The notes below the pieces were generated by a model. That model did no database searches and had not been told where the DNA came from. It saw only the letters and a program-made list of their open reading frames with translations. From Clostridia bacterium (GTDB lineage Bacteria > Bacillota > Clostridia > TANB77 > CAG-508), in NCBI GenBank assembly GCA_017404025.1, contig JAFRDD010000013.1:1-62866 (forward strand): a stretch of DNA of 62,866 nucleotides. The letters are read 5' to 3'. The translations under genes and the position numbers were made by a program. This document shows positions 19,601 through 37,605 of the stretch, piece after piece; the stretch's first letter is position 1; each line of letters begins with the position of its first letter.

Positions 19601-20934
19601 CATGCTTCATTAAGCATAATATTATCAATATTTCCATTCTTCATTCTTATGTATTTCATATCTTGTCCACCAATATCAACTATTGCTGTTACATTTGGCT
19701 CAAATTCTTTTGCTGCTGTATAATGTGCTATTGTTTCTATTTCATTTAAATCTACATTTAAAGCTGTTTGTATTAATTTTTCTCCATATCCTGTAACACC
19801 GCTATATCTCAAAACATGTTTTTCATCTAATATGCTATATACTTTTTTTAACATTTCCATTACACTTTTTAATGGATTTCCTTCATTACTTCCATATAAT
19901 GAATATAAAAGCCTACCATCTGAGTCTATTAAAACTAATTTAGTTGTTGTTGAACCTGCATCTATCCCTAAGAAAATGTCTCCTTCATATTCTTCTAGAT
20001 TATTTCTTTTAACTTTTGCTTTTAAATGTCTTTTGCTAAATTCTTTATATTCTTCTTCTGTTTTAAATAATGGGTCTAATGGCTTAGTAGTATTATCATG
20101 AGAATTCCTTAAATTTTGTATCTTCTTTTCTAATTCTTTTGCTGTTATTGTTTCTGAATTAAATGAATCTAATGTTGCACCTTTAGCTACTAATAAATGA
20201 GCTTCTTCAGGTACTATTATTTCATCTTCACTTAAATTTAATGTTTCTATAAATCTTTGTCTTAATTCAGAAAGATAATTAAGTGGTCCTCCTAAAAATG
20301 CAATATTTCCTCTAATTGGCCTACCACAAGCCAAGCCACTTATAGTTTGATTAACTACTGCTTGAAATATTGATGCTGCAATATCTTCTTTAGCTGCTCC
20401 TTCATTTATTAATGGTTGTATATCTGTTTTGGCAAAAACTCCGCAACGTGAAGCTATTGGGTATATTGTTTTGTAATTTTTTGCAAGTTCATTTAACCCT
20501 TGTGTATCTGTATGTAATAATGATGCCATTTGGTCTAAAAATGCACCTGTTCCACCAGCACATGTTCCATTCATACGTTGCTCTATTGATTCGTCAAAAT
20601 ATATTATTTTAGCATCTTCTCCACCTAATTCTATTACTACATCTGTTCTTGGAATATATTTTTCTACAGCCCTTTTGCAAGATACTACTTCTTGTAAAAA
20701 ATTTACACCTAAAAATTTTGCTGCTGACATTGCTCCAGAACCTGTTAATGCTAACGTAAATTTATTATCTGGATATTTTTTTATTAATTCTTCTAATACT
20801 ACACATACTGTATTTTTAGTGTCTGAATAATGTCTTTGATAATTTTTATAAATTGTATTTTTTTCTTCATCCATTACTACTATTTTTACTGTTGTAGATC
20901 CTACATCTAATCCAACATGCAATATATTTTTCAT
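16621..20934 (-). CDS. CoA-substrate-specific enzyme activase fusion (two BadF/BadG/BcrA/BcrD ATPase modules + 2-hydroxyacyl-CoA dehydratase-like domains)
   Basis: 1437-codon ORF. Duplicated actin-fold ATPase starts are GLDVGSTTVK and GIDAGSTTTK. It is followed by large Cys-containing dehydratase-like domains. This long fusion is common in Clostridia. Confidence 0.82.
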   Translation of the reverse strand: MKNILHVGLDVGSTTVKIVVMDEEKNTIYKNYQRHYSDTKNTVCVVLEELIKKYPDNKFTLALTGSGAMSAAKFLGVNFLQEVVSCKRAVEKYIPRTDVVIELGGEDAKIIYFDESIEQRMNGTCAGGTGAFLDQMASLLHTDTQGLNELAKNYKTIYPIASRCGVFAKTDIQPLINEGAAKEDIAASIFQAVVNQTISGLACGRPIRGNIAFLGGPLNYLSELRQRFIETLNLSEDEIIVPEEAHLLVAKGATLDSFNSETITAKELEKKIQNLRNSHDNTTKPLDPLFKTEEEYKEFSKRHLKAKVKRNNLEEYEGDIFLGIDAGSTTTKLVLIDSDGRLLYSLYGSNEGNPLKSVMEMLKKVYSILDEKHVLRYSGVTGYGEKLIQTALNVDLNEIETIAHYTAAKEFEPNVTAIVDIGGQDMKYIRMKNGNIDNIMLNEACSSGCGSFIETFAKSLNIEISEFVNEAIKAKRPVDLGSRCTVFMNSKIKQAQKEGYTVGDISSGLSYSVIKNAIQKVMKVRDVETLGKHIVVQGGTFYNDAVLRAFELIVGKNVVRPDIAGLMGAYGMALLSKEQYESNLDMEYKSKIASAEEIDKLEIKVTHTRCNNCENHCKLTINKFSNGQIHVSGNRCEKGAGVVTKSKDLPNLVQYKYNRIFDYKPLEEEEAKRGTIGIPRVLNMYEDYPFWFTFFTNLGFRVIISEKSNRKTYEKGMESMPSESVCYPAKLSHGHIESLIEQGITTIFYPCMPYSRKEYEKADNRYNCPIVISYAEVLRNNVESLKTEKIKFLNPFLPFETKNLVKKIMELEEFKGYNFTKQELTEAAKKAEEEYQNCKKDIQNKGYETVKYLEENNLKGIVLAGRPYHIDPEINHGIDTLITSLGLSVLTEDSISNQTEAKRPIRVVDQWVFHARLYAAADFVGKHDCLELVQLNSFGCGVDAVTTDQVEEILASFGKMYTLIKIDEVNNLGAVRIRIRSLLASMKKREQEKKEEENIGDYGIKKNIFTKEMRKDYTILVPQMAPIHFELLETALSSCGYNVKLLRECTNHTIETGLKYVNNDACYPSIITTGQFIEALQSGKYDVNKTAIIMSQTGGGCRATNYIGFIRKALKDAGLSQVPVISFNLVGMEKNPGFKFTIPMLEKMIKSVIYGDLLQKVLTKNRAYEVNKGETQKLYEEWLEKCKNLIKKSNNKQFKQSIYDIVNDFEKIELDASVKKPKVGIVGEVLIKYHPFGNNFVADLLEKEGAEVILPDFMGFLKFMATHKITFNSLLNINKTSAKVSKAVIKVIDILEKDIKIALANSKKGYLGPCDIWHLETQVKDVLSIGNQTGEGWFLTAEMIEYIENGIPNIVCVQPFACLPNHVVGKGVIKTIRSKYPEANISPVDYDPGASETNQANRIKLLMTVAKDNLKIKQNEKNALDNENNVKKETANV

Positions 20935-21109: not shown

Positions 21110-22069
21110 TTATAAATCTATTGTTAAACTATATGTTTTTACTGCATTTTTAAGTTCTTTTTCCCATAGTTCGTCTACTCCTGTGTACTTTTCTAAAATG
21201 CATATTTTATTAAATATTATAGCTGTAGGTTGTTTAGCTTCATCAAAATATATTGGAAATTCAGATTCAAATTCTAATTTTTGATTTCCTCTTACAACTT
21301 TTTCGTCACTGTTATAAAAATCTTTTCTTTCTTTTCTTGTTTCTCCATTTAATGAAACTCCTATCCAATCATTCCCACTATCTCTTTCTAGTAAAACAAT
21401 ATTGTCTGTTTTACTGCTAAGTCTATATCTATATACTATTTTATCATAATATGTTACTTTTGCTAGCATTGATAATTTCATATATTCATCTTCTGCCGCT
21501 TTGTTATTTAAACTTTCTGCTTTAATAAATCCTTTTACAGCTAATTTATAATCATTACCATCTTTTGTAAGTACAACTTTTTCAAGATCAGTTTTATCTG
21601 AGTCTTTACCATTCATTCCTGTTGCCATTATATCTTCAAATATAGAAACTTCATATATGTATACATTATCTTTGTTTGAAAAATCTTGTATACTATAAAC
21701 TTTATTTCCACTAAATAGTGAATTTACATATATTTTAAATTTGTCTATTTTATCATTAAAGCAATACTTTTTGCAATCATCTGATAATATATTATAAGCA
21801 GATTCATAATCTTTTGCTTTTGCAAAATCCATAAATTCTTTTATTTTTGTTTCTATGGTTTGTTGTGCTTTTTTAGATGTTATTTTATCTCCAGAAATAA
21901 TTGGATCATGTGGATCATATGCTGTTGAAGGAGGCTTAGCATCTTTTATTCTTCCTAGTGTCATATTTATTCCTATTATTATTGTTAAAACTATTAATGC
22001 TATATATATTTTATATTTATGTTTTCTAATAAAATCAATTATTTTTAATCTTAAATCTGTAAAATACAT
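21110..22069 (-). CDS. Bitopic membrane protein, paralogous domain to 22087-22605 (NTF2-like guess)
   Basis: 319-codon ORF with one N-terminal TM. Segment FAKAKDYESAYNILSDDCKKYCF...YIYEVSIFED aligns with YIEKKDYQSAYNLLYPEFKATYF...YVVEISIKD of the neighbour. Confidence 0.55.
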   Translation of the reverse strand: MYFTDLRLKIIDFIRKHKYKIYIALIVLTIIIGINMTLGRIKDAKPPSTAYDPHDPIISGDKITSKKAQQTIETKIKEFMDFAKAKDYESAYNILSDDCKKYCFNDKIDKFKIYVNSLFSGNKVYSIQDFSNKDNVYIYEVSIFEDIMATGMNGKDSDKTDLEKVVLTKDGNDYKLAVKGFIKAESLNNKAAEDEYMKLSMLAKVTYYDKIVYRYRLSSKTDNIVLLERDSGNDWIGVSLNGETRKERKDFYNSDEKVVRGNQKLEFESEFPIYFDEAKQPTAIIFNKICILEKYTGVDELWEKELKNAVKTYSLTIDL

Positions 22070-22086
22070 CTTTTAGCCTCCTTTCT

Positions 22087-22605
22087 TTATTTTTGAAATG
22101 ATATAAAATAATCATTATAATCATTTTCTTGTACTATAAATTTGCCTGATTTGCTATATCTTTTTTGCTCTTTCAAAAAATCTTTTATTGAAATCTCAAC
22201 AACATAATATGAACCTTTTAAGCTTATGTCATTATATTCAATGCTAAGCATATTAGGATATTTTTCATCTTGTAAATATTTTTTAAAATCTTCTAATTTA
22301 GGAAAATATGTTGCTTTAAATTCTGGGTAAAGTAAATTGTATGCAGATTGATAATCTTTTTTCTCTATATATTTAAAATATGTTCCTAGATATATTCTAA
22401 TTCTTTCTGCTTCATCTACTTTTTTTAATTTTTTTATCATCTCTTCATCTGATTTGTTTTGTATATTTGTATTTGTACTTACAACATTTTCTGGTTCTTC
22501 TTGTTTTGGCTTTACATTTTTATATATTACTAAAAAAATCACTAAAACTACTACAAGCGCTAATATTATAATTAATAAAATTTTTTTATTTTTATCTAAT
22601 TTCAT
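22087..22605 (-). CDS. Bitopic membrane protein, paralogous domain to 21110-22069
   Basis: 172-codon ORF with one N-terminal TM. Shares the KDY[EQ]SAYN[IL]L motif with the neighbour. Confidence 0.55.
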   Translation of the reverse strand: MKLDKNKKILLIIILALVVVLVIFLVIYKNVKPKQEEPENVVSTNTNIQNKSDEEMIKKLKKVDEAERIRIYLGTYFKYIEKKDYQSAYNLLYPEFKATYFPKLEDFKKYLQDEKYPNMLSIEYNDISLKGSYYVVEISIKDFLKEQKRYSKSGKFIVQENDYNDYFISFQK

Positions 22606-22621
22606 AATACTCTCTCCAATT

Positions 22622-25600
22622 CTATTCTGTAGCTAAAGCATTTATCAATTGTAAATAAATTTCTCTGTCAGTTGTCGCTGCATTTTCAAAAACCGCTAAA
22701 CCATCAAAGCTTTCTAATTCTTCCATTGTTTCTAACGGCCTTTCAAATCTATTTGTAACATAGTTACCAAAATCATATATTGCATCATTGTAATTTGCAT
22801 ATTGTCCAAAACCATTACTACTAAATCCTGTTACTCCTTGTTGCCCTGTCCAATACATAATATTAGCTAATCTATATTCACCAGGATATGCTGTACCGCA
22901 TCCAGATTCACCTTGTATTACAGCAATTGCTGCAAGTGGATCAATATTAAATTCACTTTGTATTCTCATTAACCCATCCATCATAGATCTAATATTTGCT
23001 ATTGCACTTTCAGATAGTCCAAAGTTTTGACATGCTTTAATTATATCTTCTTCTGTTCTATGTCCATTTTCACTAGCAGATATAAGTGTTTCCATACTAT
23101 ACTCATTTTGAACAATTGCACCATTTTCATCTCTTAAAGTTAATTTAACGTCTTGTTTTTTTGTTACACCTAATTGTCCACCTTTTCCAACAGAATCTCC
23201 AAGTCCTTCATTAACTTTAAATCCTGAAATCAAAATTGTGTAATCTTTAGCTTCTCCAGCCTCTGTTATTCTTATACATATAGCATCTTCTGTTATATAT
23301 TCGATTTTTCCACCCATTGGTGCTCTTACTGGTGTACCTTCTTCAAAACCATCTTCCTGTGTTGGAGGTAATTTTGCTCTTATAACAGTATCATCACCTT
23401 CAGGTAGCAATTTGTCTGGACTATCGATTCCATCTACAGTATTAACAAATAATTTTTGTTTTAAAGCTGTTTGCTTTTTCTCTTTGAAACGTATATTAAA
23501 GTCTCTCATTAATCGTTTAAAATCACGAATTATATCTTGTGAATCTTCACCTTCTATTTGTTCAAGCATTGCAAGAGCATCAACTGCTGTTTCACTAAAG
23601 GTAATTTTATCATTTTCTGCTATTTGTCCTGTTCCATCAAATTTGTCATATTTATAGTTTAGCAATCTTTTAACTTTCTCCCCTGCTTTTCCTACACGTT
23701 GTCCATCTTTAATTTGTACAACAGAACCCGGTGAAATTTCCTCTAAAAATACTAGTCCTGCATTACTTGCTTTTCGTGTAGCTTCTTTATCTGCATCTGT
23801 TGCTTCATGCATATAAGTTCTTTTTCTATAATTTTCAGATGTATCCCAATAATAACAATATCCCCCAGTAGAGTCACCTTTAAAGCTTATATCTTGATAC
23901 CAATGATTTTTTACTTCTAACAATATTGGTATTCTTTTTGTAAATCCATCTGTTACTTCTCCTGTTTCTTCATCTATTTCACCAATATTATATTCAAACA
24001 TATCATCTAATAATGTTCTTACATCTTCAGCTGTTAACTCTTCATCTTCTAGTTTTGCATTTATTGCATTTATTAATGCATTTGGTATAGAATTTCTCCA
24101 AAACCAACCATCACTATTTTTATAATATCCGACTAAACTTCCACTTTCATTGGTTTTTTCATCTCTCATATAAGAATAATCATCAAAATTTCCATTTCCA
24201 AGCGGTGCTGGTGTTATTACTTCTTTGCCATCCTCATCTAGCTCTACAGATACTAATCTATAATAATCTCTATGTCTCCAGAATAACATCATATCTCCTT
24301 CAACACTTTCGTTTGGAGCATGATAGTTAGATATATTGTGCATTATATATACATCATACAAACTTGCAACATTTGGTACAAAATAGTAATCACCTGACAT
24401 TCCCATATATCCAGAATTGTAAACAGTACCATCTTCAGCAACACCATCTCCTTCTGTTTCATAAATAGTAATAGGTGCTCCTTTTTTAGCATTCATTGTA
24501 GAACCTGTACCATTATAATAATATCTTTGATATGTATTGTTTCCAGAATATGTTAAATCATCTTTTATATCCATTACTAAGCTTCCTGTACCATTCCAAT
24601 TTAAACTTCCACCTCTTATACCATCTTCATCACTGTATTCACAATACATAAAATCTTGTATAGGTCTAAATTTGAAATTTTCAACTATTATTCTTCTTGC
24701 TTTGCTAAGTGCCTCTTCAGAATTATCTGGAGCCATAGGTGAAGATGGCCCTAAAACAATAATACTGCCATCATCCTGTTCTTTAATAATTTCCAATGCT
24801 TTTAATCCATAGCAAATACTTGCCAAATATGTATCTTCTATTGTGTAATAATATTCTGCAACTCTTTGTGAAGCAATTGAAGCACTAGAATTAAATGATG
24901 TACTTTTACAAACAAAAGTACCTGCATATAATTTTTCTCCCCCATTAGCTTCTCTTGTTTGTTTTATAGCCTCTTCCGTATCATCAAGCCATTTCAATAC
25001 ATTTCCTTCATAATTATCTGTAGCAATTTGAGCTATAGATTTTTTCATATACTCTGGATATGTATTATCACTAATCCTCTTTGCTTCCTCAATAGTTTTA
25101 ACTCCTTGTTCGCCTTTTCCAGTTTCCCCTGAGCTTACTCTATGTGGATGGAAGTCTGATGTTCTAGTTTTTTCTAAATAATAAAATTTTTCGCCTTCTT
25201 CTTCTCCTAAATCCAATAATAATTTAGATTTCATGGCATTATTTTTTACTTCTAATAAGCCTATTTCCGTAACTGTTCCAGATCCTTCATCTTCCTCTGT
25301 ATCTGGATTATCAACTTTATTTATTGCTGCTATTTGTGCAAAATTGTAAGCAAAATCTGGTGCTAATGTTGATAAATGCATTGTTAAAGATAATTGCAAT
25401 GGTATTCCATATCTACTTACCCATCCATCTAGTGGATAATCATAATATGTTACTTTTTGCCATCCATCATTTCCATTATATACTCTCATCGTTTTGGTTG
25501 ATCTGTCTACAGCAACTAAATCTATTATTTGAGCCTCTGATACTTTATCTACTATATAGTAAGGTAATCCTACCATAGTTTTACCAACCTCCATGACAGC

Positions 25601-27166
25601 ATCTTTAATCCATTGTGCAAATTCTGGTAACTTATCTTCTAAAGATTCCTCACAGTTAATAAATTCACATTCATCTTCATCAATATTTTCAATATAATCA
25701 CTAGGTAAAATCTCCTCATCTGTTGTAAAATATATCATACCACAGCCTTCATCTTCTTCAACTTTTCTTCCAAATAGTTTACCAGCTTTAATGTTTGCAT
25801 CAGTATAAAAATTTCTTATTAAATATGTTGAATTTTCTGCAGATAAATACATTCCTAAATATTTTGACATTACAAATCCAACATTTCCACTACTATCTAA
25901 TACTAATTTAATATTCTTCCTTATTTCTGATTCTGACTGTCCTTCTTTATAATTGTACACATATACTGTAACATATTCTGGAGCTTCTTCAGATGGATCA
26001 GCATCTTTTGTTCTATCTGCTATACTACCAGTACTAAAATCTGTTAGTGGTAACTGACTTGCATCATAAGCATCTGTATCTAATTGTTTCATTTTACTAA
26101 ATAACCATACACCAAATTTAGTATCCCATTCTCCAGTAATAAAATCAGTCCAGTCTATAACATCTGATAATTGTGTGTTATCTACTTTTGCAGTCAATTT
26201 AGTTAAATTAGTTACAGGTTTAGGAGTACCATCATCATCCTCGTCCTCACTACCATCATGAGTTAAAAAACCGAAACCGTTTAAATCATACCCCATCTGC
26301 ACTAAATATTCTCCTGCTTCAGCCATATCTTTTTTAGTTATCATAATTTGATTTGCTCTTGAACCATTTACAAATATTTGGGCATCTCTCCAAACATCAC
26401 TTATAGCTTCACCTATTCTATCTACTACCATTCCAGGCATTTCTACAAAAAATGCTATTATTCCAACTGCCATAATAATTATTATTAATACAATTATTAC
26501 TATACCTAATGCCCCAGCGGCTCCACCACCAGCTCCAGCAGCAGCACTTCCACCGGCACTTGCTCCGGCACTTGCTCCTGCTTCAGCACCTGCTTCGGCT
26601 CCCGCTGTTGAAGTTGCTGTTGTTGTTGAACTAGTCGTTTCTGCTGTAGTTGTTGTTTGTGATGTTGTTTGTGACGTTTGACTTTGTGATTCATGGCCAT
26701 CTTTTAATTTCGAATTATCTTGTCCTTTGGGTTTTTTATCTGATTTTAGTTCATCATCTATATCTGAATTGTCATTTCTTCTTCCGTTTGCTGAATCTGG
26801 TTCATCAGAATCTGGTTTATTTTTGTCATCTTTTTGCTGACTATTTTTATCATCACTATCTTGTTTTTGATTATTATTATCTTGATCTTGATTATCATCA
26901 TTATTATTGTCATCTTGATCATTGTTGTCATCATCATCGTCGTCGTCTTGGTCTTCATCTTCTTCATCGTCGTCATCGTCATCTTTTAAATTCTCATCAT
27001 CTTCTTCTGTTAATTGTTGATTTAAACGTTTTTTTCTATTTTCTTCTTCTTCTAATTCCATTAAACAGTCTAAACAAAGACCTGTTGGATCATTGATAGG
27101 AATATATCTTATTTTACACCTTTTACAAAGCTTTTTATTTGCTTGTTCATTTACATTGTCAGCCAC
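22622..27166 (-). CDS. Giant T4SS-associated protein: Zn-ribbon, acidic low-complexity tail, TM, large exodomain, degenerate LytM-like and lysozyme-like C-terminus
   Basis: 1514-codon ORF. CKRC...CLDC at aa 14-34. D/E/N run at aa ~53-145. TM at aa 219-241 (26444-26512). GTPVRAPMGGKIEYI... barrel-like segment at 23102-23347, without His ligands. DPLAAIAVIQGESGCG segment at 22625-22984. Confidence 0.75.
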   Translation of the reverse strand: MADNVNEQANKKLCKRCKIRYIPINDPTGLCLDCLMELEEEENRKKRLNQQLTEEDDENLKDDDDDDEEDEDQDDDDDDDNNDQDDNNNDDNQDQDNNNQKQDSDDKNSQQKDDKNKPDSDEPDSANGRRNDNSDIDDELKSDKKPKGQDNSKLKDGHESQSQTSQTTSQTTTTAETTSSTTTATSTAGAEAGAEAGASAGASAGGSAAAGAGGGAAGALGIVIIVLIIIIMAVGIIAFFVEMPGMVVDRIGEAISDVWRDAQIFVNGSRANQIMITKKDMAEAGEYLVQMGYDLNGFGFLTHDGSEDEDDDGTPKPVTNLTKLTAKVDNTQLSDVIDWTDFITGEWDTKFGVWLFSKMKQLDTDAYDASQLPLTDFSTGSIADRTKDADPSEEAPEYVTVYVYNYKEGQSESEIRKNIKLVLDSSGNVGFVMSKYLGMYLSAENSTYLIRNFYTDANIKAGKLFGRKVEEDEGCGMIYFTTDEEILPSDYIENIDEDECEFINCEESLEDKLPEFAQWIKDAVMEVGKTMVGLPYYIVDKVSEAQIIDLVAVDRSTKTMRVYNGNDGWQKVTYYDYPLDGWVSRYGIPLQLSLTMHLSTLAPDFAYNFAQIAAINKVDNPDTEEDEGSGTVTEIGLLEVKNNAMKSKLLLDLGEEEGEKFYYLEKTRTSDFHPHRVSSGETGKGEQGVKTIEEAKRISDNTYPEYMKKSIAQIATDNYEGNVLKWLDDTEEAIKQTREANGGEKLYAGTFVCKSTSFNSSASIASQRVAEYYYTIEDTYLASICYGLKALEIIKEQDDGSIIVLGPSSPMAPDNSEEALSKARRIIVENFKFRPIQDFMYCEYSDEDGIRGGSLNWNGTGSLVMDIKDDLTYSGNNTYQRYYYNGTGSTMNAKKGAPITIYETEGDGVAEDGTVYNSGYMGMSGDYYFVPNVASLYDVYIMHNISNYHAPNESVEGDMMLFWRHRDYYRLVSVELDEDGKEVITPAPLGNGNFDDYSYMRDEKTNESGSLVGYYKNSDGWFWRNSIPNALINAINAKLEDEELTAEDVRTLLDDMFEYNIGEIDEETGEVTDGFTKRIPILLEVKNHWYQDISFKGDSTGGYCYYWDTSENYRKRTYMHEATDADKEATRKASNAGLVFLEEISPGSVVQIKDGQRVGKAGEKVKRLLNYKYDKFDGTGQIAENDKITFSETAVDALAMLEQIEGEDSQDIIRDFKRLMRDFNIRFKEKKQTALKQKLFVNTVDGIDSPDKLLPEGDDTVIRAKLPPTQEDGFEEGTPVRAPMGGKIEYITEDAICIRITEAGEAKDYTILISGFKVNEGLGDSVGKGGQLGVTKKQDVKLTLRDENGAIVQNEYSMETLISASENGHRTEEDIIKACQNFGLSESAIANIRSMMDGLMRIQSEFNIDPLAAIAVIQGESGCGTAYPGEYRLANIMYWTGQQGVTGFSSNGFGQYANYNDAIYDFGNYVTNRFERPLETMEELESFDGLAVFENAATTDREIYLQLINALATE

Positions 27167-27183
27167 AAAATCACCTCCTTACT

Positions 27184-29442
27184 TTATAATTGCTCTCTTA
27201 ATGCCCTTTTAATTTCAGCATCAACTCTTGCCTGTGGTGCTGTTCCAATTGCAGACATCATTGATTTTGATGTATAAATTTCTCTTGCTAACATTTTATA
27301 ATCTTCATCTGCATTACTATAATCATTCGAATTGAAATAATCACTACCGTTTCTTGCATGATGATTTATATCATCAATTATTCTATCTACCATTCCTGGT
27401 GGTACTGTTCCACCTTGTCCCGGTGTATAGTTAGGATTAACCATATCATCTTTATGCAAATGCATATTGCCCATAACAGTAGTAGCAACACCAACTATAT
27501 TTTCTGTTCTTACTTTTATTGCATTTCTTACATTTCCAGCTTGAATCTTTTCTACTTGATGCATTACTCTTTGCGCTGGATCTCCTTCTCCTCTGTCTTC
27601 ATATAATTTTTTCAATTCTTGTAATCTCTTTGCTAATTGTCTTTCAGCTGGGTCTGTTATTGTAGCAATATCTTTTTCATATAAATCTAAACATTTATTA
27701 TAAATTTCTTCATCACTCATATTGTCATTATCTATTCTATAATTATCCATCGCATTTGCCAAACGATTGTTATAAGCATTTTCTTGTAACTTATGTAAAT
27801 CCTTATCAATTTTACCTGTAAATTTCTTGCCAAAGTATCCTGGTCCAGTAATATATCCTGCAGCTATACCTTGTGCAGCACTTCCAGTTAATCCAGAAAC
27901 AAATGCTCCTGTCATTATTTTTGGTGTAATCTTAATTGCATTATTTAATTGTTGTAAAGAACCTTTGGCTACTAAATCATCCATAACTTTATTTGGATCA
28001 ACTGAAAATTGTTCTAATCTTTCTGCATTATTTTTCAATTTTTCTGCTAAAGCTTCGGCAAATGCTGAACTTCCAGCTCCACTATTTGCAATTCCATCAG
28101 ATATTTTATTTCCAGTATTTCTTAATACATCTCCTAATGCAGCTGCTCTCTTTCCTAAAGGTGTTGTAGCTCTTGATTCAGCTCTTGATGGAATCTTTGT
28201 ATTATCAATAGGTCCTGAAGGTGGGTTACTTGTATGATTTTGAGGTATATCTTTACATTTAAAGTCAGATGTACTAGATCCTCCACCTGCACTACCAGCA
28301 GCTTTTGCATTTTTATTTTGAGATTTAGATTGAAATTTAGACATAACACCCCAAGCAAGTGCCCCTGATGCTGCTGCATTTTCCAAAGTTCCTGCTCTAA
28401 ATCCAAATATATTTTTAATAATATCTTCTGCTTTAAATACAAACAATATAGACATAATAGCAACTATAAAATTTTTAAGAGATGTTGTTTGTGCCAATGC
28501 TTTTATTGCAGTTGAACACATCATAGCATATATTATGCAGTGAAATGGCTGTATTATTATATTAAAAATGAATTCTTTAAGCCAGGTATTTAACGCTTGT
28601 AACTTTCCAGCTCCCATTTTATCTATTGAATATGTAACTGTTATTAATGGTGAAATTGCAACTAAAAATCCTATCGTAAAGAAACGCTTTATATATTGTA
28701 CAAAAAACGCTACAGTAACACCTAAAATTGCAACATATACTATTAAAGCTCCCCATCCTCTAAAGAATCCAGAATTTATAATTACATTATCTATATCCTC
28801 TGTTACTTTTGAAAATCCATCTTGTGTATCTCCCATAATTGTATATACTAAGTCAACTAAAGAATTGTTAATATAAACAGTTCCAACCATAATATAATGT
28901 AATACAAAAAGCATTATAAATCCCATAAGCCAATCTTTAAACATTTCTTTATATTTTGCTTTTGTATCTGCTACTGAAGAAATAGCCATTCTAATTCCCA
29001 CATAAATTAACACAACTAATGAAGCTACTATAGCAATATTTCTCATTAAATAATATACTTTGGCTATACTTTCTCTTATTTTATTAACTGTTGCATCCTC
29101 ACTTTCTTCAGTATCAAAAAAATTGATATCTAAAAATTTAATTCCTTCTTTTTTTGAACTTCCAGAAAAAATTATATCTTCAGGGGTTACATTCCAATCA
29201 TCTGCTCCTGTCGCAAAAGCAGACAAAAGCCCCCATCCAACTTTTACTATCGCATATGGAATTAATTTATATGGCTTCATTATAAAATTTATTGTTCCAT
29301 CCAAAACAGTTAATGCATTTGGATCTTCTACAAACCATCCTAAAACTGGTGACTCTGCACTACTTATTAATGGAAATCCTATATTAAAAATTGTTATTAC
29401 TAAAATTAGTATACATATAAATTTTCGTAATTTAGTTTTCAT
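27184..29442 (-). CDS. VirB6/TrbL-like polytopic membrane protein, paralogue 1, with long hydrophilic C-terminus
   Basis: 752-codon ORF with signal peptide. Shares the blocks INFFD, YYLMRNIAIV..LIYVGIRMAISSVADTKAKYKEMFKDWL...HYIM and WLKEFIFNIIIQPFHCIIY with 29444-33115 and 34349-35593. Confidence 0.65.
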   Translation of the reverse strand: MKTKLRKFICILILVITIFNIGFPLISSAESPVLGWFVEDPNALTVLDGTINFIMKPYKLIPYAIVKVGWGLLSAFATGADDWNVTPEDIIFSGSSKKEGIKFLDINFFDTEESEDATVNKIRESIAKVYYLMRNIAIVASLVVLIYVGIRMAISSVADTKAKYKEMFKDWLMGFIMLFVLHYIMVGTVYINNSLVDLVYTIMGDTQDGFSKVTEDIDNVIINSGFFRGWGALIVYVAILGVTVAFFVQYIKRFFTIGFLVAISPLITVTYSIDKMGAGKLQALNTWLKEFIFNIIIQPFHCIIYAMMCSTAIKALAQTTSLKNFIVAIMSILFVFKAEDIIKNIFGFRAGTLENAAASGALAWGVMSKFQSKSQNKNAKAAGSAGGGSSTSDFKCKDIPQNHTSNPPSGPIDNTKIPSRAESRATTPLGKRAAALGDVLRNTGNKISDGIANSGAGSSAFAEALAEKLKNNAERLEQFSVDPNKVMDDLVAKGSLQQLNNAIKITPKIMTGAFVSGLTGSAAQGIAAGYITGPGYFGKKFTGKIDKDLHKLQENAYNNRLANAMDNYRIDNDNMSDEEIYNKCLDLYEKDIATITDPAERQLAKRLQELKKLYEDRGEGDPAQRVMHQVEKIQAGNVRNAIKVRTENIVGVATTVMGNMHLHKDDMVNPNYTPGQGGTVPPGMVDRIIDDINHHARNGSDYFNSNDYSNADEDYKMLAREIYTSKSMMSAIGTAPQARVDAEIKRALREQL

Positions 29443-29443
29443 A

Positions 29444-32400
29444 TTATTTTTTTCCTTTCATTTTTCGTTCAACATCCTTAGACTCTTGGATTATGCCAAT
29501 CAATCTTTGATATTCTGGTTTTACTCTTAAGTTATCATCTATTACACTTGAATTTATTGTACTAGCCTCTTTAATACTCTTTATTAACTGGTCATGTGTA
29601 ATTGATGAAATATATTTGTCCATTGGTTGAGTATTAGTATTATTAGCAATAATACGCGAAATATCAAATACCTTTCTGTTTACTAGTCTTTCTTTAGCGA
29701 ATTCATCAGTTATTGGTCTTCCCCATCTAGCTTGGTAAGTCGCTTTTTCGTTTGCTATATCTGCTTGTGTAATACCTGCTGCAACTGATGGCCTTTGTAA
29801 TTCTGCCATTTGGCCAGCCATAATTTGTTTGAAATTATCTTTAAAGTTTACTGCATTGATTCTTCCTGTTTCTGTACCTATTCTGTCTATTATAGCATTT
29901 GCATCAGCTAAATTCATTCCTGTTTGTTCAACTTTGTCTTTCTTTCTCCACTTGTCTATTTCCATTCTTTTTTCTGTTAATTTTGTTGAAGAATCCAAAG
30001 CTCCTTTTATTAATTCTTTCTTTCTAGAATCACTTAGACCTGCATATTCTGAAACAACATCAGCTTCTCTAACTTCTGAAGGTCTTATATTTCTACGCTG
30101 TGCAATTTGTTTTCTTAATTCTGTTTTAATATATTCATCAAATTTATCTTTATCAAATTCAATATTTTTGTCTTGTTTTTTCATTGCTGCACCAATTTGT
30201 ATTTCCATATTTCTAACATCTGACGTTCCTGATATAATATGGTCTATTTCATGTATATTACTTGATCTGTCTAACGCTCTATTTATAAGTGCTTCTCTTT
30301 GAGATGCACTCATTGTTCTAAATGCCTGTCTCATATCTTGTTTTGTAACACTACTTGCTGTTATACCTCTACTTGTTGCTACACTATTTCGTAAATTATC
30401 CATAAATTCTCGTTGGAATTTAGTTTTAGAGTATTCATAATTTCTTCTGTCAGTTTTCATTGTTTTTCCTAACATAGTTCCAATATCATCTATATTAGTT
30501 GTACCATTAGCAATCTGATTTATAGCCATAGTAACATCTGTTGTTCTATTAGCATCTACTTCAAACATAATGTTTTGAATAATATCTGAAGAAATATGTG
30601 TTTTTGCTTGCGCATATATTGTTTTTAGTTCATCTATATCTATCGAACTATCTTCAAATAATTTTCTATATTCTTTTCTTGCGTCTTTATCTAACTTTTT
30701 CTTTAATATCTCAAATTGAGCATTATATACTTTATTTCCTCTTGTTTCTTCATAATCTTTATTTAATCTATCTATTCCTCTTATCCTGTCATATGCTCCT
30801 AATGTTCCAAAGTTTAATACTGCATCACGCATTTTTTCTGCTAACCCTTGTGGTGCTCTATAATTCTTACTTTGTTTAGCATAACTATTTATTCCCTTTT
30901 TAAAATGCTTACTTGCAGTAAAGGCCGCTGGTAATCCACCTGCTCCTTCTACAGCAATCATTGGAATTGCAAGTGATGAATATGCTATTCCAGCAGCTGT
31001 ATTTCCTGCTATTGATAACTTATTTTTAAATTCTTTTCTATCTGCCTTATCAATTGCTTCTTTTTGTTTAAATAATGAATTTGCAATTTTAGTAGAATCC
31101 ATATCTGCTATTTCACTAAAACTCATATTTTGATTTCCTTCTAGTATAAAGCTACTTGGATCTGTCCAAGAACTTGTTCTTCCAACATTAACACTAGTTT
31201 GTCCTGCAGCTTTTGCTCTGTCTATATCATCTTTAAGTTTTAATATTTTTGCATCTCTTCGTAATTCATTTGCTCTTTTATGTATTTTACTTATAGGCTT
31301 TGTAACTGGACTTGTTACTACACCTAGTACTCTTGTATTTGCTCCAACAACAGATTTTGCAATTTTAGCACCATATGCTACACCTACTGATTTTTTAATT
31401 ATATCTGTAATATTTCCTGATTTAATTCCAAATATTTGCTTAAATATACTCTCAGCCTTTAATAAAAACATTATCATTACTATTGCTATAAATATTCCTT
31501 TAAAAGATTCTCCTCCTATTTGGTAAGCTAACCTTGCAAACATTGTATAAAGAAGAGCATGTACACTCTGTATAATTATATTATATACATATTCTTTTAA
31601 CCATCTTCCGTAAGATTGTGCTTTATTGTCTTTTATTTTATCTAATGAATATAGCACTCCTATAAATGGTGCCATAAGTGTAAGTATTGCTACTACTATA
31701 TATCTTTTAAAATATACCCATAAAAATCTTATAAGCAAATATACAAGTATTATATAAAATAAAGTTGACTCCCAACCAACGCTTGCTTGCAAAGCATAAG
31801 AACCATTTCTTACAGTATCATACAATGATTCTTCAGATCCATAAAATGCCATTCCTGATTTATTAATTAAATCTAAACCTGCATTATTTAATTGTAAAAC
31901 TATAATCATTATATAATGTATAGAAAATACCATAACAAAGCTTACAAACCAACTTTTTAATAAGTCTTTGTATTTTGCTTTTTCATCTGCTATAGTTGAA
32001 AGTGCAGCACGTATACCAAGGTATATTAATGTTACAAGTAATAAAACAATTGAAAGATTTCTTATAACATAATACCATACTGCTATATTCTTTCTTATAA
32101 CATATAATATATTATCCTCCCCACCTTGAATTTCAACTCCACCTGCATGGCTAAAATCAAAAAAGTTTACATCTAAAACTGGTACTTTATTAAATAATAA
32201 TTTTTCTACTGTTAAACTTGACTCTATTCCTGTAACAGCTTCCATTGTGTTATCTATTAATACTTCTATTATTTCTACCCATCCTACTATTACAGCTCTC
32301 ATTAAATATGTATCAATTCCAATATACCAATCAAGAATATCCTCTAAACTTATAGGCATAAATAAATCTCTTATTTTCATGCCAAATTTTCCTTGTTGCA

Positions 32401-33115
32401 ATCCTTTGTATTCAAAACTATTTTGTATTGGTTCAGTATATACTGTAACTAAATTTCTTTTATTAATTCTTTGTAATCCTTGTTCTGTTATTCTTGCTAT
32501 CATATATGTTCCATTTGTTGGATTAAAATCTCTCTTTTTGACTCCACTTATTCCAGTGCCTTCTTCATAATTACAGTCTATTATTTTATTATCTCCAACA
32601 TAAATTACAGTATGGCTATTATCTCCCTCTGTAAAATATAATATTATATCTCCTTTTTTAGGTTCATCTGTTACATATTCAAACCAACCATTTGCATAAG
32701 AAAGCCCTTCATCATCTGGCCTCCAAACAAATCCATATTTTCCACTTGCAGCTTCTGGAATGTTTAATCCTGTTGAATAATGTATTACAAAATTTACCCA
32801 TCCTAAACAGTCCATTGCAAATTTATTCTCATATGTTGTCCCTGTTGGAACTGCCCCATTGTTATTAGTATATCTTTCTCCTCTATATGCAGCTGCACTT
32901 GCTTCTGGTGTTTGGTCATATATTGTATCGTTTTTTCCATATGTTGCTTCAAAGTTAACTGCAAATTTATATATTGTATTCATAAATTCTTCTTGAGTAA
33001 CAGCTTCATATTCTGCATATACATTTTTGCTAAAAAATAATAATACAAAAAAGAAGAACATAAATAAGATTAATAGTTTAATTATTTTTCTATTAACAAT
33101 TTTTTTATTAACCAT
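29444..33115 (-). CDS. NlpC/P60 hydrolase fused to VirB6-like membrane domain (paralogue 2) and repeat-containing tail
   Basis: 1223-codon ORF. NlpC/P60 Cys/His (MDCLGWVNFV...SHTVIYVG) at 32486-32968. Paralogue blocks are VNFFD, IADEKAKYKDLLKSWF...HYIM, WLKEYVYNIIIQSVHALLY. C-terminal ~90-aa module occurs about 3 times (29666-30532). Confidence 0.78.
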   Translation of the reverse strand: MVNKKIVNRKIIKLLILFMFFFFVLLFFSKNVYAEYEAVTQEEFMNTIYKFAVNFEATYGKNDTIYDQTPEASAAAYRGERYTNNNGAVPTGTTYENKFAMDCLGWVNFVIHYSTGLNIPEAASGKYGFVWRPDDEGLSYANGWFEYVTDEPKKGDIILYFTEGDNSHTVIYVGDNKIIDCNYEEGTGISGVKKRDFNPTNGTYMIARITEQGLQRINKRNLVTVYTEPIQNSFEYKGLQQGKFGMKIRDLFMPISLEDILDWYIGIDTYLMRAVIVGWVEIIEVLIDNTMEAVTGIESSLTVEKLLFNKVPVLDVNFFDFSHAGGVEIQGGEDNILYVIRKNIAVWYYVIRNLSIVLLLVTLIYLGIRAALSTIADEKAKYKDLLKSWFVSFVMVFSIHYIMIIVLQLNNAGLDLINKSGMAFYGSEESLYDTVRNGSYALQASVGWESTLFYIILVYLLIRFLWVYFKRYIVVAILTLMAPFIGVLYSLDKIKDNKAQSYGRWLKEYVYNIIIQSVHALLYTMFARLAYQIGGESFKGIFIAIVMIMFLLKAESIFKQIFGIKSGNITDIIKKSVGVAYGAKIAKSVVGANTRVLGVVTSPVTKPISKIHKRANELRRDAKILKLKDDIDRAKAAGQTSVNVGRTSSWTDPSSFILEGNQNMSFSEIADMDSTKIANSLFKQKEAIDKADRKEFKNKLSIAGNTAAGIAYSSLAIPMIAVEGAGGLPAAFTASKHFKKGINSYAKQSKNYRAPQGLAEKMRDAVLNFGTLGAYDRIRGIDRLNKDYEETRGNKVYNAQFEILKKKLDKDARKEYRKLFEDSSIDIDELKTIYAQAKTHISSDIIQNIMFEVDANRTTDVTMAINQIANGTTNIDDIGTMLGKTMKTDRRNYEYSKTKFQREFMDNLRNSVATSRGITASSVTKQDMRQAFRTMSASQREALINRALDRSSNIHEIDHIISGTSDVRNMEIQIGAAMKKQDKNIEFDKDKFDEYIKTELRKQIAQRRNIRPSEVREADVVSEYAGLSDSRKKELIKGALDSSTKLTEKRMEIDKWRKKDKVEQTGMNLADANAIIDRIGTETGRINAVNFKDNFKQIMAGQMAELQRPSVAAGITQADIANEKATYQARWGRPITDEFAKERLVNRKVFDISRIIANNTNTQPMDKYISSITHDQLIKSIKEASTINSSVIDDNLRVKPEYQRLIGIIQESKDVERKMKGKK

Positions 33116-35620: not shown

Positions 35621-37564
35621 TTATTCTCTTCTTAAATTATTTAAGTTAGTTTCTACAAACTCTAATTCTTTTTTTGTTGGTCTAATAGCTATTACTGCAG
35701 ACTCGTTTCCAACTTTTAACAAGCCTTCTCCTCTACTACATGTAATTAAAAAGTTTGATTCTCCTTCACTTAATTTAAATACTTCTTTTATGTAATGAAT
35801 TTCAGATTTATCTTGTGCTAAAAATAGCTTAGTATCTGATGATGTTAAAACTGCTTGTACTTCTGGCTTTTCATAAAAGTCTTGGAATTTTTGTGACATA
35901 ACTGCAAGTGATACGTTTCTTTTTCTTGCACGTCTTGCCATTGTATTTAAAAAGTCTACAGCTTCTGGGTATGGAAGTAACATCCATGCCTCGTCTATAA
36001 GTACTCTTTTTTTAGCAGCTTTTGTTCTATCTTCACTATTTTTCTTAACATATTTTTCCCAAATCCATGAAAGCAATATTTGCTGTGCAAGTGGTCTTGC
36101 AAATCTTTCTTCTAGTTGTGATATGTCTAAGTTTATAAATGGAACTCCTTCTAATAATTCAAATGTTGATTGTCCATCAAAATAAGCCATTTGTCCATCA
36201 TAATCTCTTACATATTGTCTCATAACTTTTATTAAATAACTGTAATGAAATCTATAATCACTATTTTCATTACTTTGAGCTTTCTGTAAAATTCTTCTAT
36301 ACCATGAGCCTATTGTTGGCATTAATTTCTTTTCTCTTCCTAAATAATTGCTGCTTACTATACTTCCAGCTTTACTATCTCTATATAAACTATTTATGTT
36401 ATTATTTATTCCAAGTGCTGCATATTCTTCTGAAACAGATTCTGCAATTATTTGTTTTGTAAGCTCATTTACATCTCTACTTCTTGTACTTCCTCTTGCC
36501 ATTGTAAGTAATGCTTGTGTTACGTCCTCTACTTTATTTTCTACATTTACTACAGTTCTTTCTTTTCCTGTTATTTCATCTCTTATAATTTCTGGCTCTA
36601 AATCAAATAAATTAATTACTGTATTTGAATTAGGGCTTATTGTTACATTTATTCCACCTAATGCTTCAGCAACTACTCCATACTCACCTTCGGCATCAAG
36701 TGCTAAACTTTCTATTCCCATTAAAACTGATGAACGAGAAGTTAATGTTTTTATTGTAACACCTTTACCGGCTCCAGATTTACCAAATATAACCATATTA
36801 TAATTTGATAATGATGAATCAAAATTGTCAAATAATACTGGTAATCCTGTTTGAACGTTAAACCCTAATGGTATTCCATTTTCATGTCCTATTTCTGATG
36901 TAAAAAATGGAAATACTGTTGACATAGAATTTCTATCAAATGCATGTGTTTTCTTTAACTTGTTTTCACAAAATGGTAAATTTGTTTTAAATGCTTCTTC
37001 CTGAATTGCCCATGCTGGTTTAACATCTGTTAAAGTTTTAGACATCTCTGCAGATAGCATTTCCGTATATTTATCTAATTCTTCTAAACTATATGCAAAT
37101 AATGTACATACCATTGTTGATTCATAAATTTTGTTAAAACCTGCGGCTATTTGATCTCTAAGTTGTTCAGCTTCCATTCTTTTTTGCTCTAGTAATCTCT
37201 CTCTGTTTATATCCCCTCTTCTTAGGGCTACTATTCTTTCAGACTCTAATTCGTTTATTGTTCTATTTAATTCTGTTTGTGATGAATTTTCTCCTTTAGG
37301 TGTAATAAATACTGATATATTTGCATCTCCAAAGGTATACATTCCTCTTAAAAATTCTGGGAATGTACACATTCTTGGTATTGCAGAAACAATCATGCTT
37401 CTTGCATATCTTGTTTTTGTTGATACTATTTCTAAATGATTTACATTAGATGCATTTACTCCAGCAGGTGCTATTAAATCTTTTAATGTTTTCTTTTTCA
37501 TTGTGCCTTCTACTTGTTCTTGCTCTTTTATATTTTCTTGTTTATTTTTATTAAATAATGCCAT
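35621..37564 (-). CDS. virB4: VirB4-family type IV secretion ATPase
   Basis: 647-codon ORF. Walker A is FGKSGAGKG (36761-36784). Also LDAEGEYGVVAEALGG motif, Walker B VLIDEAWMLL, and ARRARKRNVSLAVMSQKFQDF. N-terminal domain pattern matches Gram-positive VirB4/TcpF/PrgJ-type proteins. Confidence 0.9.
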   Translation of the reverse strand: MALFNKNKQENIKEQEQVEGTMKKKTLKDLIAPAGVNASNVNHLEIVSTKTRYARSMIVSAIPRMCTFPEFLRGMYTFGDANISVFITPKGENSSQTELNRTINELESERIVALRRGDINRERLLEQKRMEAEQLRDQIAAGFNKIYESTMVCTLFAYSLEELDKYTEMLSAEMSKTLTDVKPAWAIQEEAFKTNLPFCENKLKKTHAFDRNSMSTVFPFFTSEIGHENGIPLGFNVQTGLPVLFDNFDSSLSNYNMVIFGKSGAGKGVTIKTLTSRSSVLMGIESLALDAEGEYGVVAEALGGINVTISPNSNTVINLFDLEPEIIRDEITGKERTVVNVENKVEDVTQALLTMARGSTRSRDVNELTKQIIAESVSEEYAALGINNNINSLYRDSKAGSIVSSNYLGREKKLMPTIGSWYRRILQKAQSNENSDYRFHYSYLIKVMRQYVRDYDGQMAYFDGQSTFELLEGVPFINLDISQLEERFARPLAQQILLSWIWEKYVKKNSEDRTKAAKKRVLIDEAWMLLPYPEAVDFLNTMARRARKRNVSLAVMSQKFQDFYEKPEVQAVLTSSDTKLFLAQDKSEIHYIKEVFKLSEGESNFLITCSRGEGLLKVGNESAVIAIRPTKKELEFVETNLNNLRRE

Positions 37565-37605
37565 TTTTTATTAAACTCCTTTCTTTTTCTTATGAATATT
37601 TACTC

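Follow-up and report, generated by a model that had tools for sequence, protein, structure and literature searches.

The window, by which we mean the whole 62,866-nt stretch of DNA analysed, carries an open reading frame for a protein of 1514 residues, which has a strong ribosome-binding site and follows a gene whose stop lies at 27184 (Table 1). An identical protein was found on 10 contigs, from at least four samples among the places listed. About 218 highly acidic residues without a signal peptide precede a single hydrophobic helix, and the roughly 1270 residues C-terminal of the helix end in a LytM fold and a GH73-type domain. The domain order proposed in an earlier reading of the letters by themselves (the sequence-only reading) was confirmed.

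Table 1. Positions of the 1514-residue protein's features and of neighbouring genes in the window.
Feature	Residues	Position	Strand	Basis
Whole reading frame, GTG start, stop codon counted	1-1514	22622..27166	-	
Shine-Dalgarno GGAGG, 7 nt 5' of GTG		27174..27178	-	
Candidate zinc ribbon CxxC-x13-CxxC, predicted cytoplasmic	14-34	27065..27127	-	
EEDDENL motif	54-60	26987..27007	-	alignment
Acidic low-complexity tract	37-160	26687..27058	-	composition, repeats, insertions
Linkers, S/T-rich then A/G-rich	161-186, 187-218	26513..26686	-	composition
Single TM helix	219-241	26444..26512	-	hydropathy
N-core	243-667	25166..26440	-	alignments; fold without known match
Variable insert	668-965	24272..25165	-	alignment, structure model
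C-core	966-1261	23384..24271	-	alignment, structure model
Degenerate LytM/M23-fold domain, without metal ligands	1262-1356	23099..23383	-	
Divergent GH73-type glycan hydrolase domain (putative)	1375-1514	22625..23044	-	
172-residue single-TM protein, downstream		22087..22605	-	
319-residue single-TM protein, downstream, syntenic, last gene of the cluster		21110..22069	-	
Upstream 752-residue polytopic protein and 1223-residue NlpC/P60 endopeptidase fusion		27184..33115	-	
VirB4-type ATPase, 391-residue protein, PrgI/VirB3-like protein, three VirB2-like pilins		35621..40583	-	
VirB4-type ATPase		35621-37564	-	
PrgI/VirB3-like gene		38781-39140	-	
Three VirB2-like pilin genes		39159-40583	-	

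The candidate zinc ribbon comprises Cys14, Cys17, Cys31 and Cys34, and its only Pfam match, to the double-zinc-ribbon entry DZR_2, is sub-threshold (E 0.041). The pattern occurs in one of 158 collected family sequences, the 1514-residue protein itself, and a related strain carries a synonymous change at 27065 with Cys34 retained; as judged from this collection, the candidate ribbon is a one-off of its lineage and no family feature. The motif EEDDENL, present in seven collected relatives, forms a short conserved island in a tail that is otherwise unalignable. The core of the acidic tract (residues 62-100) is pure D/N/Q/E, with 56% D, 23% N, 13% Q and 8% E, and the wider tract contains 31% D, 15% N, 11% E and 11% K. 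The sequence-only reading was right that such a tract exists, but by composition its "nearly pure" portion spans about 40-50 residues, not 90. The same reading's suggestion that the tract varies in length was upheld by one-codon insertions at 26869 and 26872 in related strains and by the homologue P0009, in whose cluster (at least 90%) lengths run from 1650 to 1672 residues with nearly all indels in the poly-D/E tract; by these indels, the tract is a hot spot of length polymorphism in this close homologue. Within 26858-26983, Tandem Repeats Finder detected imperfect repeats of 6-33 nt only. Kyte-Doolittle windows scoring at least 1.6 begin at residues 207-231 only, with the peak at 222, leaving the proposed TM helix as the sole hydrophobic segment; an MPG motif C-terminal of it (residues 243-245) is invariant in the alignment columns. 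The predicted topology places ribbon and acidic tail on the cytoplasmic side of the membrane and the wall-active domains on the other, which fits the trans-envelope layout put forward earlier; the coupling of this cytoplasmic module to wall remodelling, proposed with it, is putative.

The middle region of about 1000 residues has no match in Pfam, NCBIfam, PHROGs, PDB sequences, PDB folds or BFVD folds. The sequence-only reading had left it as unrecognised, missing that a large family shares it as a conserved core. With at least 584 sequence clusters, this core defines, by sequence comparison, a family in uncultured gut Clostridia. Its N-core is the most widely conserved part (motifs MGYDLxGFGF and YGxPLQLSLxxHLSTxAPDF), the variable insert is missing in short members and partly disordered in the structure model, and the C-core (motifs GWFWR, NHWYQD and AMLEQ) is well modelled, with pLDDT of about 80-88. 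The C-terminal enzymes across the family include GH73, SleB-like, lysozyme, C39-like, GDSL, NlpC/P60 and CHAP types, and among close relatives the tip is GH73 in the 1514-residue protein and P0005, SleB-type in P0006 and a phage-tail lysozyme in P0009. As these domain assignments indicate, the family swaps its wall-cutting tip, the C-terminal enzyme being exchangeable. This exchangeability, too, had gone unnoticed in the earlier reading.

The LytM segment matches Pfam M23 weakly (E 0.013-0.17), and its best Foldseek match is the crystal structure of the PrgK LytM domain (8s0u, E 2e-4), followed by EnpA (6.8e-4) and EnvC (1.6e-3); NlpD, DipM, SpoIIQ and active M23 peptidases are also among the fold matches. 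There is no His in residues 1230-1362, so HxxxD and HxH are absent, as had been claimed, and the motif is degenerate in 36 of 36 diverse family members examined. EnvC, NlpD, DipM and SpoIIQ likewise have a LytM fold without a metal site, which serves protein-protein contact or hydrolase regulation and not catalysis; their work is to switch on separate amidases or transglycosylases or to build the SpoIIQ-SpoIIIAH channel. Here, in contrast, the LytM domain is fused directly N-terminal of its likely client enzyme, in a T4SS subunit.

That enzyme is scored at 77.6 bits by a family GH73-module HMM built without the 1514-residue protein. Matches to Pfam PF01832 are weak (E 0.12, and 0.0038 for the closest homologue), the score of the 1514-residue protein lying below the Pfam gathering score, and a PDB profile search of the C-terminal domain returned only GH73 enzymes above noise (8yxk at 3.9e-6, 5t1q, LytB, Auto and FlgJ). 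The candidate catalytic Glu of the earlier reading, Glu1420 (nt 22907-22909, in GESGCG), does not vary across an alignment of 15 sequences and lines up with the general-acid Glu of GH73. Since the Pfam score is sub-gathering, the beta-hairpin is short and poorly modelled in the structure model and no second catalytic carboxylate is identifiable in the domain, the activity is putative; overall it resembles an ordinary, if divergent, GH73 module. An ordinary M23 and GH73/GH23 enzyme, the alternative that the sequence-only reading had raised against itself, is thus borne out for the GH73-like part with its invariant Glu and not for the LytM part, which lacks metal ligands.

The genes around the reading frame, a conserved operon-like cluster, bear out the Gram-positive T4SS context proposed earlier: matches comprise T4SS_pilin/TrbC for three genes (above threshold), a VirB4 P-loop (58.9 bits), a PrgI-like protein and NlpC/P60, the last fused to a VirB6-like membrane region in the 1223-residue protein. 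In the window, and likewise in every close relative, the gene sits tightly between VirB6-like genes and two conserved single-pass genes with gaps of 15-17 nt, gene order is the same around P0005 and P0006, and homologues of the neighbouring genes occur at 37 of 64 genomic loci. The 172-residue gene always adjoins it, in the position that PrgL takes after PrgK in the pCF10 order PrgI-VirB4-PrgK-PrgL, and its product has no sequence similarity to PrgL or any PDB entry. In related species, VirB4 and a flanking housekeeping gene are 83-94% identical, but identity drops to 34-55% for the 1514-residue protein and for the remaining membrane or surface subunits. The cluster lies on the chromosome at a distance of 18 kb from dnaA, and no relaxase, coupling protein or integrase was found in the window. 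The apparatus may not be conjugative. Neither the chromosomal setting nor the lack of a relaxase had been remarked on in the sequence-only reading.

Other Gram-positive transfer systems offer partial parallels. TcpG of pCW3 (Clostridium perfringens) joins a FlgJ/GH73-type glucosaminidase to NlpC/P60 and CwlT of ICEBs1 (Bacillus subtilis) a muramidase to NlpC/P60, both being small two-domain proteins of about 300-400 residues. As there, one apparatus has both a glycan hydrolase and an NlpC/P60 endopeptidase; here, in contrast, the activities are split over two giant proteins (1514 and 1223 residues), with a degenerate LytM and a large novel core lying N-terminal of the glycosidase. The closer likeness is to PrgK (VirB1-like, DELTA class) of Enterococcus faecalis pCF10, which shares the long, poorly structured cytoplasmic N-terminal region, the one TM helix, the extracellular degenerate LytM without HxxxD/HxH followed by a glycan-strand hydrolase with a catalytic Glu, and the T4SS operon with a small single-pass protein gene next (prgL; here the 172-residue gene); its LytM crystal structure is the best PDB fold match. 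PrgK differs in having 871 residues, which agrees with the earlier statement that the protein is far larger than known T4SS hydrolases, in lacking the conserved core of about 1000 residues between TM helix and LytM that has no known fold match, and in carrying a phage-tail-lysozyme-like muramidase where a GH73-type glycosidase stands here. It also has a CHAP domain, absent here, where a cysteine-peptidase-type NlpC/P60 sits on a separate neighbouring protein; and the gene here is chromosomal, without a relaxase or coupling protein nearby. BLASTP found no homology to PrgK, and hhalign of the LytM region gave E 0.014 at a probability of 3%. Despite this absent sequence similarity, the shared plan of N-domain, one TM helix, degenerate LytM and glycan hydrolase (PMC11323569), together with the 8s0u fold match, means that the architecture is not unprecedented, contrary to its description as unusual. 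The protein resembles an outsized version of PrgK, related to it by design and hitherto unnamed. The relaxase-less MPF-FATA-type T4SS of Patescibacteria resembles the cluster in being chromosomal, monoderm-type and near dnaA, with several VirB2-like pilin genes; it belongs to a different phylum, whereas the present one is from low-GC gut Clostridia, and a giant PrgK-like subunit is not described in the excerpts of the two sources (PMC12102498; PMC12857230).

Taken together, the 1514-residue protein is probably a membrane-anchored, cell-wall-opening subunit of a Gram-positive MPF-FATA-like T4SS, with a VirB1-like function on the PrgK plan. In PrgK itself, the N-domain is cytoplasmic and the TM helix spans 254-274; the protein further has a degenerate LytM and a muramidase, which its LytM and CHAP domains down-regulate, and it binds PrgL (PMC11323569). 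Every Gram-positive VirB1 homologue known so far is anchored in the membrane and carries its enzyme domains outside the cell (PMC12857230). The tail of the 1514-residue protein would lie in the cytoplasm and the remainder outside the membrane, where the GH73 tip would cut glycan strands locally and so open the thick wall to the channel or pilus; the peptide stems would be cut by the NlpC/P60 domain of the 1223-residue neighbour. The degenerate LytM would not cleave and might bind peptidoglycan or restrain and position the glycosidase, as has been reported of PrgK. The conserved core of about 1000 residues could be a scaffold, linking the enzyme to the apparatus, probably by way of the adjacent 172- and 319-residue single-pass proteins, and carrying it outward into the wall. 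The EEDDENL island and the lineage-specific zinc ribbon belong to the acidic tail, which may contact a partner in the cytoplasm, for instance VirB4 with its high conservation.

A less likely reading, to which we nevertheless give some weight, is an envelope-spanning structural subunit or adhesin whose main task is not to open the producer's own wall: it would extend through that wall to bind or cut the wall of another cell in contact with it (recipient or prey). An exchangeable tip would then match targets, and an arms race would drive rapid divergence. The extracellular part is much longer than holding an enzyme at the membrane would require, even close relatives with near-constant VirB4 differ in their tips, and all membrane and surface subunits show the low identities given above. 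Predicted peptidoglycan hydrolases have been proposed as lactococcal conjugation adhesins (PMC11067333; PMC12857230), and Gram-positive systems lack a VirB10 equivalent, a role for which an as yet unidentified subunit is expected (PMC12857230). However, the protein lacks adhesin-type repeats, an LPXTG signal and any recognised binding domain, its TM anchor speaks against release, and the swapped tips are mostly functionally equivalent glycan cutters, so that exchange may be neutral.

That the protein is a general autolysin or divisome-associated wall remodeller, with the secretion genes merely adjacent, we regard as improbable. Distant paralogues with the same N-core adjoin ftsE, ftsX and two PcsB-like M23 genes, without recognisable T4SS genes, and the cluster is chromosomal, near oriC and co-inherited with housekeeping neighbours; against this stand the tight packing among VirB6-like and single-pass genes and the neighbourhood kept at more than half of the loci, and other giant unannotated reading frames at the ftsEX-adjacent loci may be divergent secretion components. 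A phage-derived tail lysin or tape-measure-like protein of a prophage remnant, suggested by the LytM and lysozyme-type tips typical of tail-associated lysins, the Pfam "phage tail lysozyme" domain in relatives and the phage origin that the PrgK authors propose for such modules (PMC11323569), is effectively refuted by gene context; the protein has no PHROG match and in BFVD matches the M23 fold only, its TM anchor and 218-residue cytoplasmic tail misfit a virion protein, and no capsid, portal, terminase or tail genes lie nearby, the lone "terminase" match being the VirB4 P-loop.

The 1514-aa protein is probably a very large new variant of the Gram-positive type IV secretion system (T4SS) wall-hydrolase subunit. 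Its reading frame is real, with a GTG start, a GGAGG sequence 7 nt 5' of it and the end of the previous gene 17 nt before the start, and all features listed in the sequence-only reading were found in the protein; its interpretation was borne out in part. Four cysteines (Cys14, Cys17, Cys31 and Cys34) form the CxxC-x13-CxxC pattern that had been read as a zinc ribbon. This candidate is sub-threshold with Pfam DZR_2 (14.1 bits, cut-off 27) and is confined to the target's lineage among 158 collected family sequences; in a related strain Cys34 is retained via a synonymous change. The acidic tract that follows is present, the "nearly pure" stretch being about 40-50 residues rather than the 90 first described: a D/N/Q/E core (aa 62-100; 56% D, 23% N) lies within a mixed-charge acidic tract (aa 37-160). 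A T/S-rich linker (aa 161-186) and an A/G-rich linker (aa 187-218) lead to the transmembrane helix, the sole hydrophobic segment of the protein (aa 219-241); the N-terminus carries no signal peptide. The predicted topology places the N-terminal region in the cytoplasm and, beyond the single helix, the enzymatic domains outside the cell.

The roughly 1000 residues after the helix, in which nothing had been recognised, gave no match in Pfam, NCBIfam, PHROGs or the PDB sequences; searches of the same collections with the whole protein returned low-complexity noise and one weak M23 match. A word-indexed search yielded ten relatives only (32-42% identity); when the last 154 aa served as the query, the target alone was retrieved. 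Screening 1.84 billion representative proteins with a profile spanning the transmembrane helix to the LytM domain, we found at least 584 clusters at E<=1e-3, of which 411 reach <=1e-10 and 92 reach <=1e-30, and thus the region is a core conserved across a large family without a name of its own; the sole source name encountered for any member is "glucosaminidase domain-containing protein". All 64 loci in GTDB species genomes belong to MAGs of uncultured gut Clostridia, the sequencing runs with the target sequence are gut metagenomes, sheep and bovine included, and no core homologue was found by tblastn on the 72,556 plasmids of PLSDB. The core comprises two blocks carrying conserved motifs and an insert between them (Table). 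An AlphaFold2 model of aa 243-1362 (1120 aa) has a pLDDT of 65 overall and of 75-90 in the N-core and C-core blocks. In Foldseek searches it matched PDB entries through its LytM part only, the PrgK LytM crystal structure coming first and then M23 peptidases and EnvC (LytM domain), and M23 folds only among the BFVD viral predicted structures. Profiles from two core alignments (A2 and A4) had no match among PDB sequences. A known fold was detected in the remaining ~1000 residues neither by structure nor by sequence profiles; given the moderate quality of the model, the core may still have a known fold despite the lack of Foldseek matches.

Next to the core lies the M23-like segment, in which the HxxxD and HxH motifs had been noted as absent. 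These ligands are indeed impossible, because histidine is absent between aa 1230 and 1362. M23 support in Pfam is weak (E 0.013-0.17; 12.5-16.1 bits vs the cut-off of 28.7). The LytM/M23 beta-barrel fold is present, with a Foldseek probability of 1.0 to 8s0u (the crystal structure of the PrgK LytM domain), 6smk, 4bh5, 7qrl, 2b13 and others, and a second model, of aa 1240-1514 (pLDDT 70), matches EnpA, EnvC, DipM, PrgK LytM and SpoIIQ. In the target the metal-ligand positions align with ISGF and KLTLRD; they are non-His in all 36 diverse members, with the signature I-S-G-F and D-[IL]-x-[IL]-x-[ML]-[RK]-D. Conservation of this non-His signature indicates that the LytM domain is probably under selection for a non-catalytic role.

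The lysozyme-like segment with a candidate glutamate was recovered in the last 140 residues, which hold GESGCG and Glu1420, and by sequence criteria this terminal domain is probably a divergent member of the GH73 family. Pfam PF01832 matches the target at E 0.12 (13.4 bits, cut-off 30.2) and its closest homologue at E 0.0038; an HMM from the GH73-type tips of the family, some of them above the Pfam threshold, with the target and its nearest relative left out, scores the target at 77.6 bits. Above noise, the PDB profile search returned GH73 enzymes only, namely a phage cell-wall hydrolase, the S. aureus and pneumococcal glucosaminidases, Listeria Auto and FlgJ, and the model of aa 1240-1514 matched the catalytic (GH73) domain of LytB from pneumococcus more weakly (E 0.025-0.086). 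Glu1420 is invariant in an alignment of 15 sequences (A5) and pairs with the GH73 general-acid glutamate, the E of the ES(N/D)xG motif in Auto, LytB and the S. aureus enzyme. This glutamate is the sole universally conserved catalytic residue of GH73, the second carboxylate being sometimes absent (PMC4752226); the beta-hairpin that could carry a second carboxylate is short in the target and has a pLDDT <50. The GH73-type domain is likely active.

The same order of parts is known from PrgK, the VirB1-like wall-cutting subunit of the E. faecalis pCF10 T4SS. PrgK has an N-terminal domain inside the cell whose structural confidence is low, a transmembrane helix (254-274), an extracellular LytM domain whose degenerate active site has neither HxxxD/HxH nor metal, a muramidase domain with a catalytic glutamate and a CHAP domain; its muramidase is down-regulated by the LytM and CHAP domains, and it binds the VirB8-like PrgL (Sun et al. 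2024, PMC11323569). The target follows the same design logic, down to the gene for a small single-pass protein directly after its own, but is nearly double the size, with its ~1000-aa core, and has a GH73-type domain where PrgK has its lysozyme-like muramidase. Whereas PrgK unites LytM, glycan hydrolase and CHAP, domain search found no CHAP in the target, and NlpC/P60 is supplied by the neighbouring 1223-aa protein. Between target and PrgK, BLASTP gave no significant alignment and hhalign aligned the LytM region at E 0.014 (probability 3%), the similarity being at the level of the fold only. Sharing a common plan without sequence similarity, the target is therefore called PrgK-like in design and probable function, outside the PrgK sequence family.

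The window is an origin-proximal part of a low-GC (~27%) chromosome: dnaA, dnaN, yidC, jag, mnmE, mnmG, rsmG, parA and parB lie at 50-62 kb, the GC skew reverses near 58 kb, and housekeeping genes fill the left 16 kb. The T4SS cluster, tightly packed on one strand and 18 kb from dnaA, is of the monoderm type (MPF-FATA-like). The target gene lies within it among genes for VirB4, VirB3/PrgI and VirB6-like proteins, and synteny is kept in homologous loci. The two genes for the 172- and 319-aa proteins are conserved and always 3' of the target gene, in the place of PrgL after PrgK in pCF10, where the order is PrgI, VirB4 (PrgJ), PrgK, PrgL. Profile searches with these two neighbours gave no PDB-sequence match and hhalign no PrgL match; by gene position only, they might be VirB8/PrgL-like. 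To the eye, both sequences have the look of an NTF2-type domain. Among the scanned window ORFs of at least 110 aa, which took in every ORF of at least 400 aa, no relaxase, coupling protein or integrase was found, nor any T4SS-linked replication function; such genes may lie elsewhere in the genome. In being relaxase-less, dnaA-proximal and multi-pilin, the system resembles the T4SS described in Patescibacteria (PMC12102498; PMC12857230).

Features of the T4SS cluster, the 1514-aa protein and the neighbouring genes
Feature	Position	Strand	Remarks
T4SS cluster	21110-40583	(-)	
Two single-pass proteins	21110-22605	(-)	172 and 319 aa; after target
Target	22622-27166	(-)	1514 codons
N-core of target	aa 243-667		invariant MPG just past helix; MGYDLxGFGF; YGxPLQLSLxxHLSTxAPDF
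Insert of target	aa 668-965		absent in shorter members
C-core of target	aa 966-1261		GWFWR; NHWYQD; AMLEQ
Polytopic protein		(-)	752 aa; precedes target
1223-aa protein	29444-33115	(-)	N-terminal NlpC/P60 endopeptidase and VirB6-like membrane region
Two membrane proteins		(-)	414 aa (weakly similar to Gram-positive conjugation membrane proteins) and 397 aa
VirB4-type P-loop ATPase		(-)	647 aa
391-aa protein		(-)	faint likeness to VirB4 N-terminal part (mycoplasma ICE VirB4 model)
PrgI/VirB3-like protein		(-)	in T4SS cluster
Three tandem VirB2-like pilins	39159-40583	(-)	127, 119 and 126 aa; Pfam T4SS_pilin/TrbC above threshold
MNT-type nucleotidyltransferase	40921-41256		between T4SS cluster and parAB/oriC genes
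Acidic protein, no family	41342-42643		433 aa; between T4SS cluster and parAB/oriC genes
HicB-like antitoxin	45205-45663		between T4SS cluster and parAB/oriC genes
YhgE/Pip-like ABC-2 membrane protein	46189-48363		between T4SS cluster and parAB/oriC genes
TetR regulator	within 40921-48937		between T4SS cluster and parAB/oriC genes
dnaA	59006-60445		

Within the cluster, the VirB4 function may be split (35621-38781), the 391-aa protein standing ahead of the P-loop ATPase, and the 1223-aa NlpC/P60 protein is a second wall hydrolase. A terminator-like hairpin (39768-39731) and a near-consensus promoter-like site (39613-39584) lie between the second and third pilin genes; the promoter/terminator scan found fewer promoter-like sites than in shuffles.

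The C-terminal tip is exchangeable. Modules classified in 36 family members were GH73 (nine members), SleB-type Hydrolase_2 and Peptidase_C39-like (seven each), GDSL/SGNH (four), and phage tail lysozyme, GH24 lysozyme, NlpC/P60, SLT and CHAP (two each). Tips are swapped even among close relatives with a common gene order, where the homologue P0005 has GH73, P0006 Hydrolase_2 and P0009 a tail lysozyme. Moreover, divergence is uneven along the cluster (window 21110-39140, compared with loci L001, L004, L006, L008, L010 and L011): against five related species genomes, identity is 83-94% for VirB4 and 83-85% for the flanking CoA-activase, but 37-44% for the target and 34-55% for the other six membrane or surface subunits. 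Judged by these identities, the exposed parts of the T4SS evolve much faster than its cytoplasmic motor. The housekeeping flank, with the CoA-enzyme activase and a Germane-domain gene, is retained in other species (L004, L008 and L010); inheritance of the T4SS cluster is therefore vertical, and its place in the chromosome fixed. The activase is a single 1437-aa ORF at 16621-20934 in the window and is called as genes of 439 and 1010 aa at L004 (16626-20940).

From the domain identities, conserved residues and gene context we infer how the target would be placed, act, be regulated and find its partners, and a hydrolase subunit opening the wall for the T4SS is, as a whole, a reasonably probable mechanism. 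With its tail on the cytoplasmic side of the membrane and ~1270 residues outside, the protein would cleave glycan strands locally with its GH73 tip, as a complement to the NlpC/P60 endopeptidase on the neighbouring 1223-aa protein, while the degenerate LytM domain would bind wall material or restrain the glycosidase. The core would dock to the apparatus and reach into the wall, and the acidic tail would touch a conserved cytoplasmic partner. According to the main rival explanation, the long ectodomain is an adhesin or an envelope-spanning scaffold aimed at contacted cells; the exchange of tips and the fast evolution of the surface hint in this direction, and there is a precedent in lactococcal conjugation, in which predicted hydrolases were proposed as adhesins (PMC11067333), yet we consider it unlikely. 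It seems improbable that the family is the missing envelope-spanning subunit, and functional VirB10 stand-in, of a chromosomally fixed, non-conjugative T4SS in gut Clostridia, in which a cytoplasmic signalling tail (Zn ribbon or SLiM) would contact VirB4, the ~1000 aa would form a novel scaffold outside the cell, the exchangeable tip would act on the walls of contacted cells and the surface would be in an arms race. Both the passage of Gram-positive T4SSs through a wall of 30-100 nm and the replacement of VirB10 are open questions according to PMC12857230. Prophage origin was rejected on gene context, and a surface adhesin was rejected as the protein has no repeats, sorting signal or adhesin domains.

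The target defines a large unnamed family joining a core of unknown fold, a PrgK-type degenerate LytM domain and a plug-in wall enzyme, and its tip swaps and core size variants could serve as a natural series for testing how hydrolases are positioned and regulated. The host cluster stands out by its place near oriC, the missing relaxase, three pilin genes and a conserved ATPase combined with hypervariable surface parts. In this it mirrors the recent description from Patescibacteria, which suggests that non-conjugative monoderm T4SSs may extend more widely among gut bacteria. Even if the target were merely a larger PrgK analogue, hundreds of hypothetical proteins could be usefully annotated from it.

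Distant paralogues (L043 1-20645 and L025 1-20786) have the N-core in common and lie among giant ORFs without annotation (1281-1653 aa), arranged in arrays, immediately upstream of ftsE, ftsX and two PcsB-like M23 genes. No recognisable T4SS genes occur within 10 kb of them; given these neighbours, the wider core family may extend outside the T4SS.

The acidic tails are long in close relatives too (21-34% D/E), seven of which have an EEDDENL island. An identical 1514-aa protein is encoded by 10 contigs, and the places listed for them represent at least four samples; the acidic tract is therefore stable within the target's strain. One-codon insertions are found at 26869 and 26872 on contigs of related strains. 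Furthermore, the homologue P0009 and its cluster at >=90% identity (P0162-P0175) comprise fifteen near-identical sequences of 1650 to 1672 aa, whose indels fall nearly all within the poly-D/E tract of the cytoplasmic tail (reference aa 72-100). Thus the proposal that the tract varies in length by slippage is supported at the level of the family.
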